A stretch of 64,000 nt of DNA from Laetmonice hystrix (taxonomy: Eukaryota): assembly GCA_965235115.1 (NCBI GenBank), contig OZ249436.1:23500001-23564000 (forward strand), read 5' to 3'. The position numbers were made by a program, and so were the translations under genes. Position 1 is the stretch's first letter, and each line of letters begins with the position of its first letter. Under the pieces are notes generated by a model. The model ran no database searches and was not told the DNA's origin. It saw only the letters and a program-made list of their open reading frames with translations. This document shows positions 9,406 through 61,989 of the stretch, piece after piece.

Positions 9406-9721
9406 ATAAGGACCTACCTGTTCAGCATTTTCTTATGCATTGCCGATATTTATTGAAGTGTAGGATATTATCAGAAATCTGTGCCCTTTGATGCCACAAA
9501 CAAGACGTGGTTTCTGGGAATCTATATTTGAAAATGAAGCGGCAGAGGATCTGGTTCATGTTAACTAGTAAGGAACTTGCAGAAACTGATAACAACCAGA
9601 AACTTCTTCACTTCTCTTCATTTTTGAGGTTGATACTGTTATTTATCATGGCCTGCCACAAAGGAGATGTTCAGCCATTTCATGTCAAAACACAGTCCCT
9701 AATACCCCAGTCACACAGGAG

Positions 9722-10081
9722 TGTTAGGGACAGACACTTAGTTCAAAGAGAGTGCGCAAGACGGCGCCACTGTCGGCGTTTTTAGAACGGTTGTAGCTCT
9801 TTTGCCTTTTTTAATAGCGAGAAATGGGCGGAAGTAGAATAGGCGAACACGTGTGTGGGGCCAGAATAACGGGTCAACGTTGTTGAACCACACAAACGCA
9901 CTCTCTCTCTCAAACTCAAGGATCAAAGCCTACGGGAAGGTGAAGCATAAGAACTCAAGCCAAGGAACATGTAAGAATTAGCGAATAAACAGCTGTGAGT
10001 ATCAACCGTTGACGAGACTAGCCTATTTACTTCGCCTAACGTTAGGGATGGGAATGTGATCGCGGCCAGGCGTCACCTACA
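9722..10081 (+). repeat. 5' LTR (360 bp)
   Basis: Direct repeat of 16301-16662 with about ten differences by eye; AATAAA at 9984-9989. Confidence 0.95.
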
Positions 10082-10156
10082 GTTCAACAACGACCTACAA
10101 GTGCGGGCATTTAAGGATTCAAGCGTCGTGTCTGCAAGGCCACTAGAGGATTAATC

Positions 10157-13100
10157 ATGGATGCTGCGACACATCTAACAGGTGCTGAAAATGCAGAGAC
10201 ATTGTTCAGGAAAAGAAATGCGGTAAAGGACGATTTAGCTGAAGTGATAGTTAGCATAAGGAGTCAAGTCGCTAGGAGGCAGACAGTGCCACGAGGTGAG
10301 GTTTCAACCTTTCATGAACTCTGTGACAAGTTAGAGGGGGGTTAATTTAATGTATCATACTACAATCTCAGATGAAAAGGGGCGAGAAGACTCAGAGACT
10401 TTCATTAAGGTTTTGACTGAAGAAATAAACCGAGTTACATGGACATTAATAAACAACAAAGTGATGATGTGTCTTCAGTAAGTTCAGCAAGCCAGATTTC
10501 CCGTAAAACTGTTTTAAGTGACAAAGCCAGATTGGCAGGAAGGCATGCTGCATTGAAACTTGCCCAGGGTAAACTGGCGGAGAGGCAAGAAATAGAGAAG
10601 CTAGAGCTTCAGATACGGCAGAAAAAGGAGCACTTACAGCTAGAGATAGCTTTGGCAGAGGTGCAAGCTGCTCACGAGGTGTACGAGGAGGAGGATTGTG
10701 CCAGTGACCATCACACAGCTGCAGGATCATACCGATCACCAACAGCAGGACAGGCCATGGGGGCTACAGGTGCAGCTTCAGCAGTAAATCCAAGGGCAGT
10801 TGTGAGTGGAGGAAACAATGCAAACATTGAGGTGCAAGCTGCACACGAGGCGTACGAGGAGAAGGGCCGTGCCAGTGACCATAACACAGTTGCAGGATCC
10901 TACCGATCACCAACAACAGGACAGGCCATGGGGGCTACAGGTGCAGCTAGAACAGTAAATGCGAGGACAGCTGTGAGTGGAGGAAACAATGTGAACATTG
11001 AAAGTGGTAAACAGGCGAATGAGGCTGACAGTACAGGTCCAGGTGAGGTGACATTTCGATCTCCATATCATGTAACAGCTGCGGTGGCAGAAGATGAGGC
11101 AAAAGCAAGTACAGAACTGTTAACGCTCATTGGTCAAGGGCAAAAGCAACAACAAATGCTGATTGATGTGATGCAGCTACCCAAGGTTGAGTTAATGGAG
11201 TATGATGGTGACCCCATAAAATTCAATCTGTTTATGAAACAATTTGAAACAAGTGTGAACCATGCTACTGTGCCAGACAGATGTAAGTTAACCAGGTTGT
11301 TGAGATACTGTACTGGCAAAGCAAGAAGGGTAATCGAGTGTTGTGCTATAATGGGTTCTTCTGCGGGTTACAAAACAGCAATCAGGTTGTTGCATGAAAG
11401 GTTTGGTAACAAGTACAACATAGCTGAAGCCTGGGTTAATATGTTAGCCGAAGGAGCTGGAACTACAAGACTTAGCAGATGATATGAGAAGTTGTGTAGA
11501 AAGTCTAAGAGCTACAGGGTTACTCAATGAGGTGGGAACACAGAGAGTGTTGGTAAAGATTGTTGAAAGGTTACCTATGTACCTAAGGAACAGGTGGTTG
11601 AAGGAAGTCCATGGCATAAAGAAAAGGTATGACAGGTTACCAGGTATTGGTGAGTTGGTACAATTCATTGCTGATGCAGCTGAGGAATGTAATGATCCAG
11701 TATATGGTAACATTACGGGTACCGGTAACAGTAAGCCTGAGTACAGGCGTGGTGTAGTTAGGTCAGGTGCGTCATTCCACACCTCAATAGAAGACAAAGA
11801 AAAGGGTAATGATGTCAAAAAAACGGTAGTTGAACAAACCTGTGTGGTATGTAAGGGGAAGCATTGGCTCATGCAATGTGAGCAATTTAGAGCCATGACA
11901 CCTGAAGAAAGAGTGGGGTTGGCTAAAAGGCACCGATTGTGTTTTAATTGTTTGAAGGTAGGTCATGTAGGTCAAAGGTGTAGGCTTGACAGGACTTGCA
12001 TAGTGGATGGTTGTGGGCGAAAACACACAAAATATTTGCATCTTACACAAGGGGCAACACTGCCAACACGGCAGAGAGACAACGGAACACAACAGGATAC
12101 GACTGCATCTACGACAACAGAGGCTGTCTCGTGTAGTAATTCAGCAGGCAAGTCAAAGATAACCTTGCCAGTGGTGGTGGTTAAGGTACAGATACCTGGT
12201 GGAGACCCTGTCATGACATATGCTTTGCTTGATAGCGGATCGACTAGTTCGTTTTGCACGGAGGATCTAGCCCTTCAGTTAGGGGTAGAGGGTGAAAAAC
12301 GTTCGTTGTTGTTGTCTACTTTAGAAGACATACAGAAACCTATCAAAACATCAGCTATAGACCTAGAGGTAGCGGCAGCTGGGGAGGATCAGTTTTACAA
12401 GATGCCAAGCGTCTTCACAAGAAATGTGATACCAGTGAGTGCATGCCACATTGCAAGGCCTAATGAGTTATCGAAGTGGCCACATCTTCGGGACCTTCCT
12501 CTTCTGCAAATGGACAAGGCGGGGGTGTCAATCTTGATAGGTCAGGACAATCCAAACTTGCTGGTGCCCTGTGAAGTTCGCTGTGCAGGGCAAGGGGAAC
12601 TGTATGCTATCAAGACCGTTCTGGGTTGGGTTGTTAGTGGTCCACTACGTGAGGGTGGACAAGGTGTTGTTACATCACAGTTTATCAATGTAGACACACA
12701 TCTGGACAAGCAGGTAGAAAGGTTTTGGGCAGTGGAAAGTAGCGAATGGCTAAATGAAGAAACCCAATGTATGTCAATTAATGATCACAGGGTTATGAAG
12801 CTATGGGAAGACTCAAAGATGGAAACCCAAACCTGCCGAATAACAGGGAAATGGCAAGAACAAGACTACAGATGTTAGGGAAGCGTCTGACGAGAGACAA
12901 GGAGCTCCATGAACGGTATAAAGGGGAAGTTGAAGACATGATATCAAACGGTTATGCCGAACAGGTGTGCGATACGGAAAGAGGGGAGTCAGGAGGAATA
13001 TGGTATCTTCCTCATCATCCGGTTCTGAATCCCAAGAAGCCAGATAAATGCAGAATCGTGTTCGATTGCGCTGCTACATTTGGTGGAACGTCGTTAAACC

Positions 13101-15997
13101 AGCAGGTACTCCAAGGTCCGGATGTAACAAACAGTTTAGTGGGAGTGCTGTTGCGCTTTCGTGAAGGGAAGGTAGCAGTAATGGCAGATGTCCAATCGAT
13201 GTTTCACCAGGTGAAGGTACCTGCAGCTCAGAGAGATGTATTACGTTTCCTATGGTGGGAAAACGGGGATCCTGGAGGGCAGTTGGTGGAGTATCGTTTA
13301 ACTGTTCATCTGTTTGGGGGCACATGGAGTCCCGCGTGTTGTAATCACTTCCTGCAGCAAACAGCGGAGGACAATGCAGAGTTGTATGGTGAGCACATCG
13401 TAAAAGCAGTAAGGGAAAACTTCTATGTCGATGATTATCTCCAGTCGGTATCAACCATAGAAGAAGCATGTTATCAGGTTGTGGGATTGAGGTCTATCCT
13501 GCAACGTGGAGGGTTTCAGTTGAAGAAGTGGATAAGTAATGACAGGAAGGTCTTAGCAGAAATTCCGTCGGACGAGAGAGCCAGGGTGATGAAAGGGATT
13601 GTTTTAAATCATGATGAGTTACCAGCAGACAGAGCTTTAGGACTGCATTGGAGTGTGGAGGACGACACTTTGGGGTTTGCAATCATGGAAAAGGATCGTC
13701 CCATGACAAGGCGAGGAATCTTAAGCATCATCAGTTCGCTGTACGACCCACTTGGAATGGCTTCTCCCTTTGTGGTTAAAGCAAAGCTAATATTGCAAGC
13801 ATTGACACGGCAACGGCTTGGATGGGATGAGCCCATATCAGAGGCACAGATGACGCAGTGGAAGTCTTGGCTTGAAGATCTCTTGACTCTAGATAAGTTC
13901 AAAGTCCCATGGTGCATCATGAACACAGCTCATTGAAACCTTGTGAAAATGCAATTACATCATTTCTCGGATGCATCAGAGGCTGCGTATGGAGTTGCAT
14001 CGTACATTTGTACAGAAGATCAAGAGGGACGCGTACATGCGGCACTGGTATTCAGCAAGTCGCACCTCGCTCCGATAAAAAGAATGACTATACCACGATT
14101 GGAATTGGCAGCCGCAGCGCTTGCTGCGAGGATCGACAAAATGTTGAGGTGAGAGTTGCGCCTGGACATAGAGAGTTCTCATTTCTGGACAGATAGCCAG
14201 ATCGTCCTGCGATACATCAAGAATGTAACCAAGTGGTTTCGAGCATACGTGGGGAACCGTGTGTCAGTCATCCGTGGCTGTTCGAGTGTTCAGAACTGGC
14301 ACCATGTGGAGTCTCAGGACAACCCTGCAGATGATATCTCCAGAGGGATGACGGCGAGCCGGCTCATGAAGTCCCAGCAGTGGTACGAAGGACCGAGCTT
14401 CCACCTGGGAGGACAGAATGAATGGCCAACTGGAGCAGATACAGGAGAGATACCTGAGGATGACACAGAAGTGAAGAAAGAAACAGTCATGAACGTTATT
14501 ACTGAAGACGAAGGAGGAGGAACAGATGTGATAGACAAGTTAATTGAAAGACATTCTTCATGACTGAAAGAGTCGGTCGCATGGATCCTCAGAGTTAAGC
14601 AGGAATTGCGAAGAAGAGCTGCCGGGGAAGAAAGGAAGTCATGTACAGAAAGCCATATGACAGTGAAGGAGTTGGATAAAGCAGAGGAGGCAACTATTCG
14701 CTACATTCAGGAACGTCACTTCTCCAGGGAGATAGAGGACATGAAAAAGGGAAGAAGACATAAGCTACAGAACCTGAATCCATACCTCAACCTGCATGGT
14801 CTGTTAGTAGTTGGAGGCAGACTGTGGAATGCAACGGTCGACGAGAACGTAAAACATCCTGTCATATTACCAAAAAATTGTTGGATCAACACACTGATTG
14901 CGAGGGAAGTGCACGAAGAGGCGAGGCATGTAGGGAGAGAACATGTACTTTCAATCCTGAGGCAAAGGTACTGGATGGTTGGTGCAAGGTTAACAGTTAG
15001 AAAGGTACTGCGGAATTGCGTTGTCTGCAAAAGATTTAGGATGAATCCTAGTAGCCAGTTGATAGCGGATCTGCCAGAAGATCGTGTGACGCCACACTAC
15101 TGCTCCATTCAAGAACGTGGGAGTCGACTGTTTGGTCCAATTCTAGTCAAGCACGGGCGTACCCAACTGAAGAGGTACGGATGCCTCTTCACCTGTCTCC
15201 AAACGCGGGCGGTTCACATAGAAATTTTGACTTCCATGGACACAGACTCTTTCATAAACGGGATGCGCAGATTTATGTGTAGAAGGGGTGTTCCAGCTAA
15301 AATCCGAAGTGACAATGGGTCAAACTTTGTAGGCGCCGAGAGGGAATTGAAACGGGCGTTAGACGATTAGAACCAAAGAAGCATAGAAGGATTCCTGAAG
15401 CAGCGTGGCACGGAATGGTTGTTCAACACGCCCTTGGCATCACATCATGGAGGCGCTTGGGAGCGATTGATCCGTTCAGTGAGGAAGGCCTTAATGGTTT
15501 CCAGGGAACAAGTTCTAACAGAAGAGAGCCTAGCAACCTTCATGTGTGAAGCTGAAGCAGTTGTAAATAGTCGACCCATTACAATGGTGTCAGATGATGC
15601 TGCTGACTTAGAGGCGTTGATGCAGAGTCATCTGTTGTTGCTGAGGAGTGGACCAACGTTAGACCCAGGAGAGTTTCAGGAAAAGAACGTGTACAGGATA
15701 AGGTGGCGACAAGTACAATATCTTGCTGACGTTTTTTGGAGGAGATGGACGAGTGAATATTTGCCGCTACTACAGCAAAGAACAAAATGGAAACAGAAGA
15801 TGCGGAATCTTACAGTAGGAGATGTAGTTCTGCACATAGATACAGGTCAGCGGGGAGGATGGCAACTGGGATGGGTCACTGAGGTGTTTCCCAGTACAGA
15901 CGGTTTAGTCAGAAGTGTCCGTGTCAAGACACAGTTCTCATCATTTGTCCGTCCAGTAACGAAGCTTAGCTTGTTGGAAGGCGTCGCAGAAGAGTAA
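10157..15997 (+). pseudogene. gag-pol: BEL/Pao gag-pol polyprotein broken by frameshifts and stops
   Basis: Three zinc knuckles (CVVCKGKHWLMQC, CFNCLKVGHVGQRC, CIVDGCGRKHTKYLH); protease LLDSGS; RT YLPHHPV/IVFD/FYVDD; RNase H HHFSDAS/WTDS/NPAD; integrase SDNGSNF and GGAWE. Spread over about eight ORF fragments. Confidence 0.93.
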
Positions 15998-16300
15998 AGG
16001 TTACACTGAGTAAGTGTAGGCCTATTTAAATTGAAGTATAACGAAGTGGCAACAGGTTTGGTCATTAGTGTTAGTTTGAATTAAAGACACCACTCGTCAA
16101 TGACAGAGTATAGTATACGTATATGGATGTGAAAGACTGGTTGTATTGTTAAGTTACCTTATGAGAGCATAATTTACAGAAGGCTTGCTATGACATGGCA
16201 TGCTTTACACATTGTATCGATTATCAAGGGTCGTTCAGAGTTAAGTCTGTCCATTTGTTCATATTTGTATTAAATGGTGTGTTTATTTAATGGGGGGCGG

Positions 16301-16662
16301 TGTTACGGACAGACACTTAGTTCAAAGAAAGTGCGCAAGACGGCGCCACTGTCGGCGTGGTTAGAACGGTTGTAGCTCTTTTGCCTTTTTTAATAGTGAG
16401 AAATGGGCGGAAGTAGAATAGGCGAACACGTGTGTGGGGCCAGAATAACCGGTCAACGTTGTTGAACCACACAAACGCACTCTCTCTCTCTCAAACTCAA
16501 GGATCAAAGCCTACGGGAAGGTGAAACATAAGAACTCAAGCCAAGGAACATGTAAGAATTAGCGAATAAACAGCTGTGAGTATCAACCGTTGACGAGACT
16601 AGCCTATTTACTTCGCCTAACGTTAGGGATGGAAATGTGATCGCGGCCAGGCGTCACCTACA
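16301..16662 (+). repeat. 3' LTR (362 bp)
   Basis: Direct repeat of the 5' LTR, preceded by the PPT and followed by the TSD AGGAG. Confidence 0.95.
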
Positions 16663-16771
16663 AGGAGGTACGACCTATTGCCGACTTCTGACAACCACTG
16701 GTCGGTAGTTGGTTGGCAGAGGTTGTATACAGGCTTTAGGCAGTCTGTAAAAGGTTACCAGTGTTCGCTTA

Positions 16772-53274: not shown

Positions 53275-54945
53275 TCAACAGATCCTGTCTCTCTGGTTAT
53301 TTCCTCCGTCGTTCCCGGAGAAATTGAAAAATGAGGGGAACCCAGACCTGGTTCGGCCACCAAGGAACAAAGGTAAACTGGTCAACTGTATTGGTGGTGG
53401 AAACGCGTAGGCCTGAAATTTGCCCCAGCTGTGGGACCATGCATCCACTGCAACAGCTTGTGGATGCGGGAAGGGAGTCATGAACAGTAGCAAGTTGCAT
53501 CTCTGGAATGGCAAACAAGTTTATTTGAGGTGTTCCCCCAAATGGAACAACTCCCGGACCACTTCTCGATTGAGGGCCCAATCTGAAGAGAGGAGGCGGA
53601 ATTCCCGGGATAAGGCATCGGGCTTGTAGTTCCGGTTGCCTTGTATATGTGCCACGAGAAGAGCAACCTGGTGATTCCTGCACCCCAGAGGATCTCCCAC
53701 GTCAACTTGAAGAGGGAAACTGACTAACAAATAGTTGACTGCCACTGATAGTCTGAATGCACCTGAATGACTATCTTATTTGTCACCAAATGCTGTCACT
53801 GTTCTAAGGCTAGTTTTATTGCCAACAACTCCAACTGACTGATGTGCAGATTTTTCTGGTCTGACGTCCATACGCCCCTGACTTTCAGAATTTGAAGATG
53901 AGCTCCCCAACTCCGGCTCGATGCGTCGGTAAACACATGCAGGTCTGGAGTCGGATTGCGGAAAGACAACCTTCCGTTAATTTGACTATTGCAGCCACCA
54001 ACTCTCAGAATTATTACTGATCAGGGAATCAGTACTGGTTTGCCTACGGGTTGGAGATGTGGTCTCCATGTGCTTAGCCAGGCAATTTGGAGAGGCCTCA
54101 AATGTAGGCGACCTAACTGCATTGCCAAACTGCCCGAATTGAGAAACCTTAAAATTGAAGCCACATTCGATCCAGAGCTGTCCTCAGAGATAGGAATTTG
54201 GGGAATACAGTCAGACCTCGTTTATCCGATCAGCTTGGTGCCCATTAAAATGTGTTCGGATTGTGAAATATATGGATTACTGAATCATTTTAAATAGAAA
54301 ATGGTAGAAGAGGTTACCGGAAAGTGTCTTCGGATTGTGAGGTATACGGATTACAGAAGCACGGATTAACGAGGTCTGACTGGATATATCGCAGTTTCCT
54401 GCCCCAGTCCTCCGTCAGAAAAACTTTCATACATGTCATACCCCTCTTGAACCCTAGATATAGAAACACCTGGGCGGTGTCAGGGAACATTTGGGTATAT
54501 TGGCTGTCAACTCCAATCTTACTAGGTTGCGCATAAATAGAGCCACTTGATTGAAAGTTGGGCCCAGTTGGCTTGCCTCAGACGGCAATCGTTGAGGTAC
54601 TGGTGAAGTAACATGCCCAGCTTGCGACCCAAGGCTCCCACTGGTGCCAACATTTTGTGAAAACACGTGGGGCTGATGTCAGTCCAAAGGGAAGTACTGC
54701 AAACTAGTACCCTTCTTTGTTTGACATTGTTAGCCGAAGAAAACGCAGGTGATGAGAATAATTGGTACATGCAGATACGCATCCTGTAAATCGATCCTTA
54801 TAGTCCAGTCTCCCTTTCGTAAGTTCTGGGCTACTGACCGAACCGTTTCCATGAGAAACGGCTCTTTTACCGGGTAAATGTTTTGAACACAGGTCTCAAC
54901 CTTCGGTCTCTTTAGGAACTGTGAACACTCCGCAACACCCATGAT
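53275..54945 (-). pseudogene. DIRS pol remnant: RT, RNase H and adenine-methyltransferase-like domain
   Basis: Fragments METVRSVAQNLRKGDWTIRIDLQDAYLHVPI (RT); VFTDASSRSWGAHL and AHIQGNRNYKPDALSR (RNase H); PHPQAVAVDAWSHSW..FQAYAFPP and VPWWPNQVW (MT). Many frameshifts. Confidence 0.85.
54208..54382. mobile_element. pogo/Tigger-like MITE (175 bp), copy 1, inside DIRS pol
   Basis: TA|CAGTCAGACCTCG ... CGAGGTCTGACTG; near-identical to 61815-61989. Confidence 0.8.
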
Positions 54946-61803: not shown

Positions 61804-61814
61804 TATATAAAGTA

Positions 61815-61989
61815 CAGTCAGACCCTGTTTATCCGAACAGCTTGGTGCCCATTAAAATGTGTTCGGATTGTGAAATATATGGATTACTGAATCATTTTAA
61901 ATAGAAAATGGTAGAAGAGGTTACCAGAAAGTGTGTTCGGATTGTGAGGTATACGGATTACAGAAGCACGGATTAACGAGGACTGACTG
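61815..61989. mobile_element. pogo/Tigger-like MITE (175 bp), copy 2
   Basis: TA|CAGTCAGACC ... GACTGACTG|TA. Confidence 0.8.

Follow-up and report, generated by a model that had tools for sequence, protein, structure and literature searches.

How does an LTR retrotransposon begin reverse transcription when the bases that follow its 5' LTR do not look like the complement of a tRNA 3' end? The question is raised by an element in the window (the whole stretch of 64,000 nucleotides analyzed here), in which the putative primer-binding site (PBS) adjoining the 5' LTR can pair perfectly with a segment inside that LTR. Our results indicate that this is a BEL/Pao (Belpaoviridae) LTR retrotransposon that probably uses its own RNA, in the manner of Tf1, to prime the minus DNA strand. 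The features of the element and its immediate flanks are as follows.

9722-16662, + strand: BEL/Pao LTR retrotransposon, whole element, recognized by its LTR pair, target-site duplication (TSD) and Pfam domains
9717..9721, + strand: 5' copy of the TSD AGGAG, matching 16663-16667
9722..10081, + strand: 5' LTR of 360 bp, TGTTA...CTACA, aligning with 16301-16662 at 96-97% identity
9874..9876, + strand: TCA, the closest initiator-like CA, with A9876 as the predicted transcript start by analogy with families that have a YAG at this place (see below)
9878..9888, + strand: LTR-internal arm CGTTGTTGAAC, the proposed self-primer near the 5' end of R, an exact reverse complement of 10082-10092
9984..9989, + strand: AATAAA poly(A) signal, from the sequence, with the end of R expected about 10-30 nt downstream
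10082..10092, + strand: putative PBS GTTCAACAACG, adjoining the LTR and not of the tRNA type, proposed from its complementarity to the LTR arm
10439..11482, + strand: gag ORF (DUF1759), from Pfam
12803..13936, + strand: pol fragment with RT and the start of the Peptidase_A17 (Pao) model, from Pfam
14606..15997, + strand: integrase fragments Integrase_H2C2, rve and DUF5641 in two ORFs, from Pfam
16292..16300, + strand: G-rich tract GGGGGGCGG adjoining the 3' LTR, a presumed polypurine tract from its sequence and its likeness to tracts elsewhere
16301..16662, + strand: 3' LTR of 362 bp, TGTTA...CTACA, from the LTR alignment
16457..16467, + strand: 3' LTR copy of the primer segment, the same 11-mer
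16663..16667, + strand: 3' copy of the TSD AGGAG, matching 9717-9721

The element was assigned to BEL/Pao because of its Pfam domains DUF1759, Peptidase_A17, RVT_1, rve, Integrase_H2C2 and DUF5641. On the + strand these follow one another as DUF1759, RVT_1 with Peptidase_A17, Integrase_H2C2/rve and DUF5641, in agreement with the BEL/Pao order PR-RT-RH-IN, and the 360/362-bp LTRs have the TG...CA ends and the short TSD (AGGAG) of that group. Pfam matched no chromodomain in the window element, only BEL/Pao families. The presumed polypurine tract is resembled by tracts of the form GGGGCCGG(G/A)A in other families. The reading frame of pol is interrupted, which leaves several ORFs. The gag ORF contains a 171-nt tandem duplication at 10658-10999, the units of which are 89% identical.

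The sequences GTTCAACAACG (10082-10092) and CGTTGTTGAAC (9878-9888) are perfect reverse complements of each other, and TGG is absent from the first 8 nt after the window 5' LTR. The pairing cannot be extended into the LTR because A10081 faces C9889, and it therefore halts exactly at the LTR edge. The complementarity, the lack of an initial TGG and the halt of the pairing at the LTR edge had been described in an earlier note on this DNA, together with the conservation of the 11-mer in the 3' LTR (16457-16467), and all of the coordinates hold. The note had also placed the 11-mer about 100 nt before the AATAAA, and the distance measured from the end of the arm is 96 nt. Its estimate for a chance match of an anchored 11-mer, about 350/4^11, amounts to roughly 8e-5, and none of 500 shuffles of the post-LTR bases gave 11 bp. 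When unanchored duplex energy was compared with that of shuffles, shuffles were as good in 2/300 cases for the window element and 7/300 for family L038, both of them significant results, and the measure was not significant for families L040 (252/300) and L042 (171/300). This measure was replaced by the anchored helix length with a cross-family control. The note had further suggested folding the 5' leader. The LTR arm at 9878-9888 is paired in the minimum free energy (MFE) fold, with a pair probability of at least 0.96. For the leader as a whole, the stability does not exceed that of shuffled sequences (z = 0.94).

A search for copies of the window family in the genome (627 Mb, 35 contigs) identified one further full copy (contig C19, TSD GACGG) and one truncated LTR (contig C4). 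The C19 copy carries an identical PBS and LTR 11-mer, so that the complementarity, the loss of which in sister copies the note had regarded as evidence against self-priming, is retained. In the C4 fragment, a single base of the arm, the final one, is changed, and no PBS is present. As both full copies are identical at the PBS and the arm, the window family is uninformative on co-variation, and we therefore sampled other families. With LTRs that are 96-97% identical, split ORFs and two copies, the window family is old and broken and may be inert now. The final seven bases of its LTR, ACCTACA (10075-10081), reappear at 10093-10099, immediately after the 11-nt PBS; the PBS also lies between these 7-nt direct repeats in the C19 sister copy, and the arrangement is inconsistent in other families.

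An RT-region search of the genome gave 109 scored matches among 434 candidates, with 40-53% identity to the window element. From these, 23 BEL/Pao elements were picked by hand so as to vary in identity, E-value and open-frame length, and they are thus not a random sample. The elements were compared as separate 5' and 3' pieces, and LTR ends were set where the match between the 5' and 3' LTRs stops, plus the TSD where both flanks were seen. Junctions were resolved for 17 of the elements, which together with the window family constitute the 18 families discussed below. The remaining elements were left out for the following reasons: no LTR pair was present in the compared pieces of L036/37, L054/55, L080/81 and L082/83, L044/45 (C3:27.65-27.66 Mb) had an 852-nt periodic structure at both ends so that its LTR ends could not be set, and L062/63 had a 3' LTR cut after 256 nt, without a TSD and without a poly(A) signal. 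No helix was found at the false LTR end of L062/63. The 5' piece of the same element reads ...TTACA|GTCAACT, with tttcAGTTGAC about 120 nt upstream, a post hoc observation that was not counted. For 15 of the 17 other families, the two LTRs of the element show 99.6-100% identity across the compared overlap (just 23-55 nt in two), and elements with a PBS complementary to their own LTR have therefore inserted recently.

In 16 of the 18 families, the post-LTR bases form a perfect Watson-Crick helix of 7-15 bp with the LTR of the same element. The helices measure 11, 12, 7, 7, 8, 9, 9, 10, 10, 8, 15, 15, 13, 8, 9 and 7 bp, and they begin 0 nt from the LTR end in 11 families, 2 nt in three, 3 nt in one and 4 nt in one, so that 5 of the 16 start 2-4 nt past the LTR and not at its edge. 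Five of the 18 families have only 5-7 bp. Families L086 and L087 have 5 bp at offset 0, with the homologous motif AGTTCAC/AGTTTAC; their longest matches (6 and 8 bp) are located elsewhere and look like chance. The mean length of the best helix is 9.56 bp when each PBS is compared with its own LTR and 5.90 bp in 306 cross-family pairs, 6 of which reach 9 bp. For control bases 31-60 after the LTR, the mean is 5.40 bp (15 families). The helix lengths sum to 172, compared with a permutation mean of 109.9 (standard deviation, 6.2), and none of 50,000 permutations reached 172, a comparison in which the sampled families are related and thus not fully independent. The sequences of the arms vary among families, with complementarity kept by matched substitutions and matched indels, as in the compensated pairs AGTTTCAC/GTGAAACT, AGTTTTCAC/GTGAAAACT, AGTTTTTCAC/GTGAAAAACT, AGCTTCAC/GTGAAGCT, AGTTTTAC/GTAAAACT and CAGAGTTTAC/GTAAACTCTG. 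The co-variation between post-LTR and LTR-internal sequences in related BEL families, which had been proposed as a test, is thus positive.

The pattern was replicated outside this genome. A profile of eight RT regions was run against public metagenome contigs and identified 79 BEL/Pao loci, 27 of which have a direct repeat around the RT match; the 10 with a 3' LTR and flank were analyzed, with L093 excluded because it retains a single base of 3' flank. Their own helices measure 10, 11, 7, 8, 6, 7, 8, 6, 9 and 7 bp, with a mean of 7.9 bp compared with 5.89 bp in 90 cross pairs, and 5 of 50,000 permutations reached the observed sum. The metagenome element L104 carries CGTTTGTTAAC/GTTAACAAACG, a compensated variant of the window pair, and in L141 the pair tttcAGTTTTTAC/GTAAAAACT was found again. 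These results bear on the possibility that the complementarity in the window is a chance match in a single element. As many windows were scanned, some events with a probability of 1 in 10,000 are to be expected, but the pattern extends to 16 of 18 families and to metagenome contigs, with permutations matching it in 0/50,000 and 5/50,000 cases, which makes coincidence scarcely credible. The suggestion in the earlier note that the element self-primes in the way of Tf1 is supported by the co-variation in the 16 families and the 10 metagenome elements, and remains a reading of their sequences.

The same data can be set against the possibility that a host RNA is the primer (a half-tRNA or a fragment from within a tRNA, such as copia and Ty5 use, or some other small RNA) and that the copy in the LTR is incidental. 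Mature tRNAs end in CCA, and copia and Ty5 are primed by half-tRNAs, with PBSs that likewise do not start with TGG. Half-tRNA PBSs are known in Ty1/copia lineages, and those of the plant Osser/Bianca lineages, which also lack the starting TGG, match an internal tRNA segment that is common to whole lineages, according to the sections consulted of PMC6317226. Priming by a host RNA predicts PBSs that are shared among families and do not co-vary with the LTR, whereas the PBS observed here differs in nearly every family and yet matches the family's own LTR. None of 19 elements from this genome and none of 10 metagenome elements (0/29) has a TGG among the 8 nt that follow the LTR, and no tRNA genes lie within the window. 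In addition, the genome contains 164 occurrences of the window 11-mer and 388 of a reversed control, which indicates that no multicopy gene carries it. Its sole cluster, at 7.19-7.37 Mb on C4, is a tandem repeat that matched neither a tRNA nor an Rfam family. On the comparison of the PBS sequences, which carries the most weight, together with the counts of the 11-mer and the tRNA search of the window, we regard a host primer as distinctly unlikely. The cluster itself (L084) comprises some 35 copies of the 11-mer on one strand, at intervals of about 850 or 1,750 bp, and one unit of it was checked for tRNA and Rfam matches.

A different function for the helix must also be considered, namely, that it is a long-range structure that closes R-U5 for packaging, dimerization, translation control or strand transfer, while some other, unrecognized primer is used. 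The MFE fold of the R-U5-PBS RNA contains the helix in all 15 leaders tested, an outcome that is favored by the cutting of the RNA at the arm start. In the Tf1 mechanism, priming also requires a further leader structure, a U5-IR-like stem-loop; the leaders studied here were folded singly, and they are too diverged for an alignment. Such a structural role would also be consistent with the helices of 5-7 bp, which are short for a primer in some families, and cleavage and extension of the arm are predictions at this stage. Against this, the helix is anchored at the boundary between the LTR and the internal region (directly at it in 11 of 16 families and no more than 4 nt from it in the others), the position that defines a PBS, and no alternative PBS with a TGG is present in the 29 elements. 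Moreover, the Watson-Crick runs are perfect for up to 15 bp, and G:U pairs extend the own-site helix in just 2 of 18 families, which fits templated copying better than structural selection alone. A purely structural helix is thus rather unlikely, and self-priming is the reading that we develop below.

If the arm is a primer taken from the 5' end of the transcript, it should lie at the start of R. In each of the 16 families with a helix, the next AATAAA or ATTAAA follows the LTR arm at a distance of 18-169 nt, and neither motif occurs within 60 nt upstream of the arm. The arm is thus upstream of the poly(A) signal, which places it where R should begin and not at the end of R. This also argues against pairing of the PBS with element RNA at the cleavage/poly(A) site, which would provide a primer derived from the 3' end and which we consider very improbable on these distances. 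Transcription initiation at the arm is further suggested by sequence motifs. The helix start falls within -2 to +1 relative to the A of a YAG in 11 of 18 families (background, 13.5%), and in six families the helix begins exactly at this A (e.g., tttcAGTTTT); we take TCAGTT to resemble the arthropod initiator. In the window family, the helix does not start at a YAG, and no TATA box was seen at -30. Its nearest CA, at 9875-9876, is 2 nt upstream of the arm, and transcription is accordingly predicted to start "at or just before 9878," as in the earlier note. By motif and position, the LTR arm is predicted to be the start of R. The distance from the start of the arm to the end of the LTR, corresponding to R and U5, is 90-243 nt. 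The arm ends in AC in 15 of 16 families and in AT in L066, and the base that follows is G in 9 of 16. The sequence ...AC|GG at the arm end, which is frequent among the 18 LTRs, may indicate where the primer is cut or that a downstream promoter element is present. With an arm of 7-15 bp as the rule, the transcript start becomes predictable and testable for each family.

In Tf1, the primer is the first 11 nt of the mRNA, which pair over 11 bp and are freed by an RNase H cut. We infer transcript start, primer cleavage and priming for the elements described here along the same lines. Transcription would begin at an initiator-type site of the LTR, at 9878 or immediately upstream. The leading nucleotides of the resulting RNA, CGUUGUUGAAC, would then pair with 10082-10092 after U5, either by folding back or in trans with a second RNA. 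Cleavage after ...AAC (9888|9889) would release a 3' OH that abuts the final base of U5. C9888, at the 3' end of the arm RNA, pairs with G10082, the neighbor of the last U5 base, so that the primer would be extended first across U5 and then across R. Extension by reverse transcriptase through U5 and R would yield the strong-stop DNA, which would be transferred to the R at the 3' end. In the general retroviral scheme, the primer is copied during plus-strand synthesis. If this applies here, plus-strand strong-stop synthesis would copy the attached primer, and the PBS would be re-templated from the 5' end of R in every cycle. Re-templating in each cycle would keep drifting arms perfectly Watson-Crick, without G:U pairs and with matched indels included.

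Self-priming of this type is known from the Tf1/sushi group, in which the PBS next to the 5' LTR complements a 5' segment of the element's own mRNA, which is the primer; self-priming was shown for Tf1 and has been implicated from fungi to vertebrates within this group (both from the part consulted of PMC4600332). Tf1 and Tf2 of Schizosaccharomyces pombe, Tj1 of S. japonicus and the Tf1/sushi chromoviruses (Metaviridae) share with our elements the lack of a tRNA PBS and the presence of an LTR-adjacent PBS that is complementary to another part of the same element. The elements studied here differ in being BEL/Pao (Peptidase_A17, DUF1759 and DUF5641), without a chromodomain match, and in being known from sequence alone. 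They also differ in the helix, which measures 7-15 bp, may be separated from the LTR by a spacer of 0-4 nt and, in 11 of 18 families, has its arm at an initiator-like YAG. The window element, which most likely works like Tf1, lies outside the Tf1/sushi group. Self-priming has also been predicted for the plant Tcn1 chromoviruses and for the TAR lineage of Ty1/copia (Houba and Osr-1), according to the sections consulted of PMC6317226. As in the present case, the proposal outside yeast was derived from sequence. The Tcn1 and TAR elements belong to the plant Gypsy and Copia superfamilies, and BEL/Pao would add a third superfamily, in animals.

The ICTV profile states that Belpaoviridae are primed by a tRNA, Arg or Gly (PMC8742986), and the part consulted of PMC4580426 gives a tRNA-Tyr PBS for the BEL/Pao element Achilles. 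Canonical tRNA-primed BEL/Pao elements have the same protein domains, TG...CA LTRs and 5-bp TSD as the elements described here, which, unlike them, lack a tRNA-type PBS in all 29 cases. A PBS matching a tRNA 3' end is part of the ICTV description of BEL/Pao, where it is not a criterion of membership. Unlike the half-tRNA lineages, each family has a PBS that matches its own LTR. A literature search, from whose reach several older subscription papers were excluded, found no report of self-priming in BEL/Pao, and the terms PBS, tRNA and priming occur 0 times in PMC3118150, PMC554778 and PMC2996953. What we propose is thus a known mechanism in a superfamily for which it has not yet been described.

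We lean, with less confidence than for the window element, toward the broader view that a large, recently active clade of Belpaoviridae in several animal hosts normally starts reverse transcription with a primer taken from the 5' end of the transcript itself, with the primer set by an initiator-type start and the PBS copied anew in each cycle. If the whole clade self-primes, the description of Belpaoviridae as tRNA primed is incomplete. BEL/Pao would then be the third LTR-retrotransposon superfamily with tRNA-independent priming, and self-priming would have arisen or persisted in all three. If so, annotation pipelines that seek tRNA PBSs would miss or mislabel such elements, and defenses directed against tRNA-type PBSs, such as the 3'-tRNA fragments treated in the part consulted of PMC7472051, would be blind to them. 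It would also bear on the question of whether hairpin priming or self-priming came before tRNA priming, which is discussed in the part consulted of PMC3601003.

Other repeats were encountered in the course of the analysis. Two further pairs of direct repeats in the window (54206/61813 and 26423/32665) were considered and found not to be LTR pairs, and with no other LTR pair present, the window provides no internal control with a tRNA PBS. The units at 54206-54382 and 61813-61989 are 177 nt long, 97% alike and MITE-like, with the inverted ends CAGTCAGACC...GGTCTGACTG. In a comparison with the Atlas, the nearest clusters were mostly from Arthropoda, with one from Cnidaria, which gives no more than a hint on the host. 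Elsewhere in the genome, BEL/Pao RT matches occur at regular spacing, with 11 in a row about 7.37 kb apart at C11:21.63-21.70 Mb, three spaced by 8.06 kb at C8:27.217-27.234 Mb and three spaced by 6.67 kb at C5:37.852-37.866 Mb. These look like head-to-tail arrays of whole elements and not like dispersed insertions.
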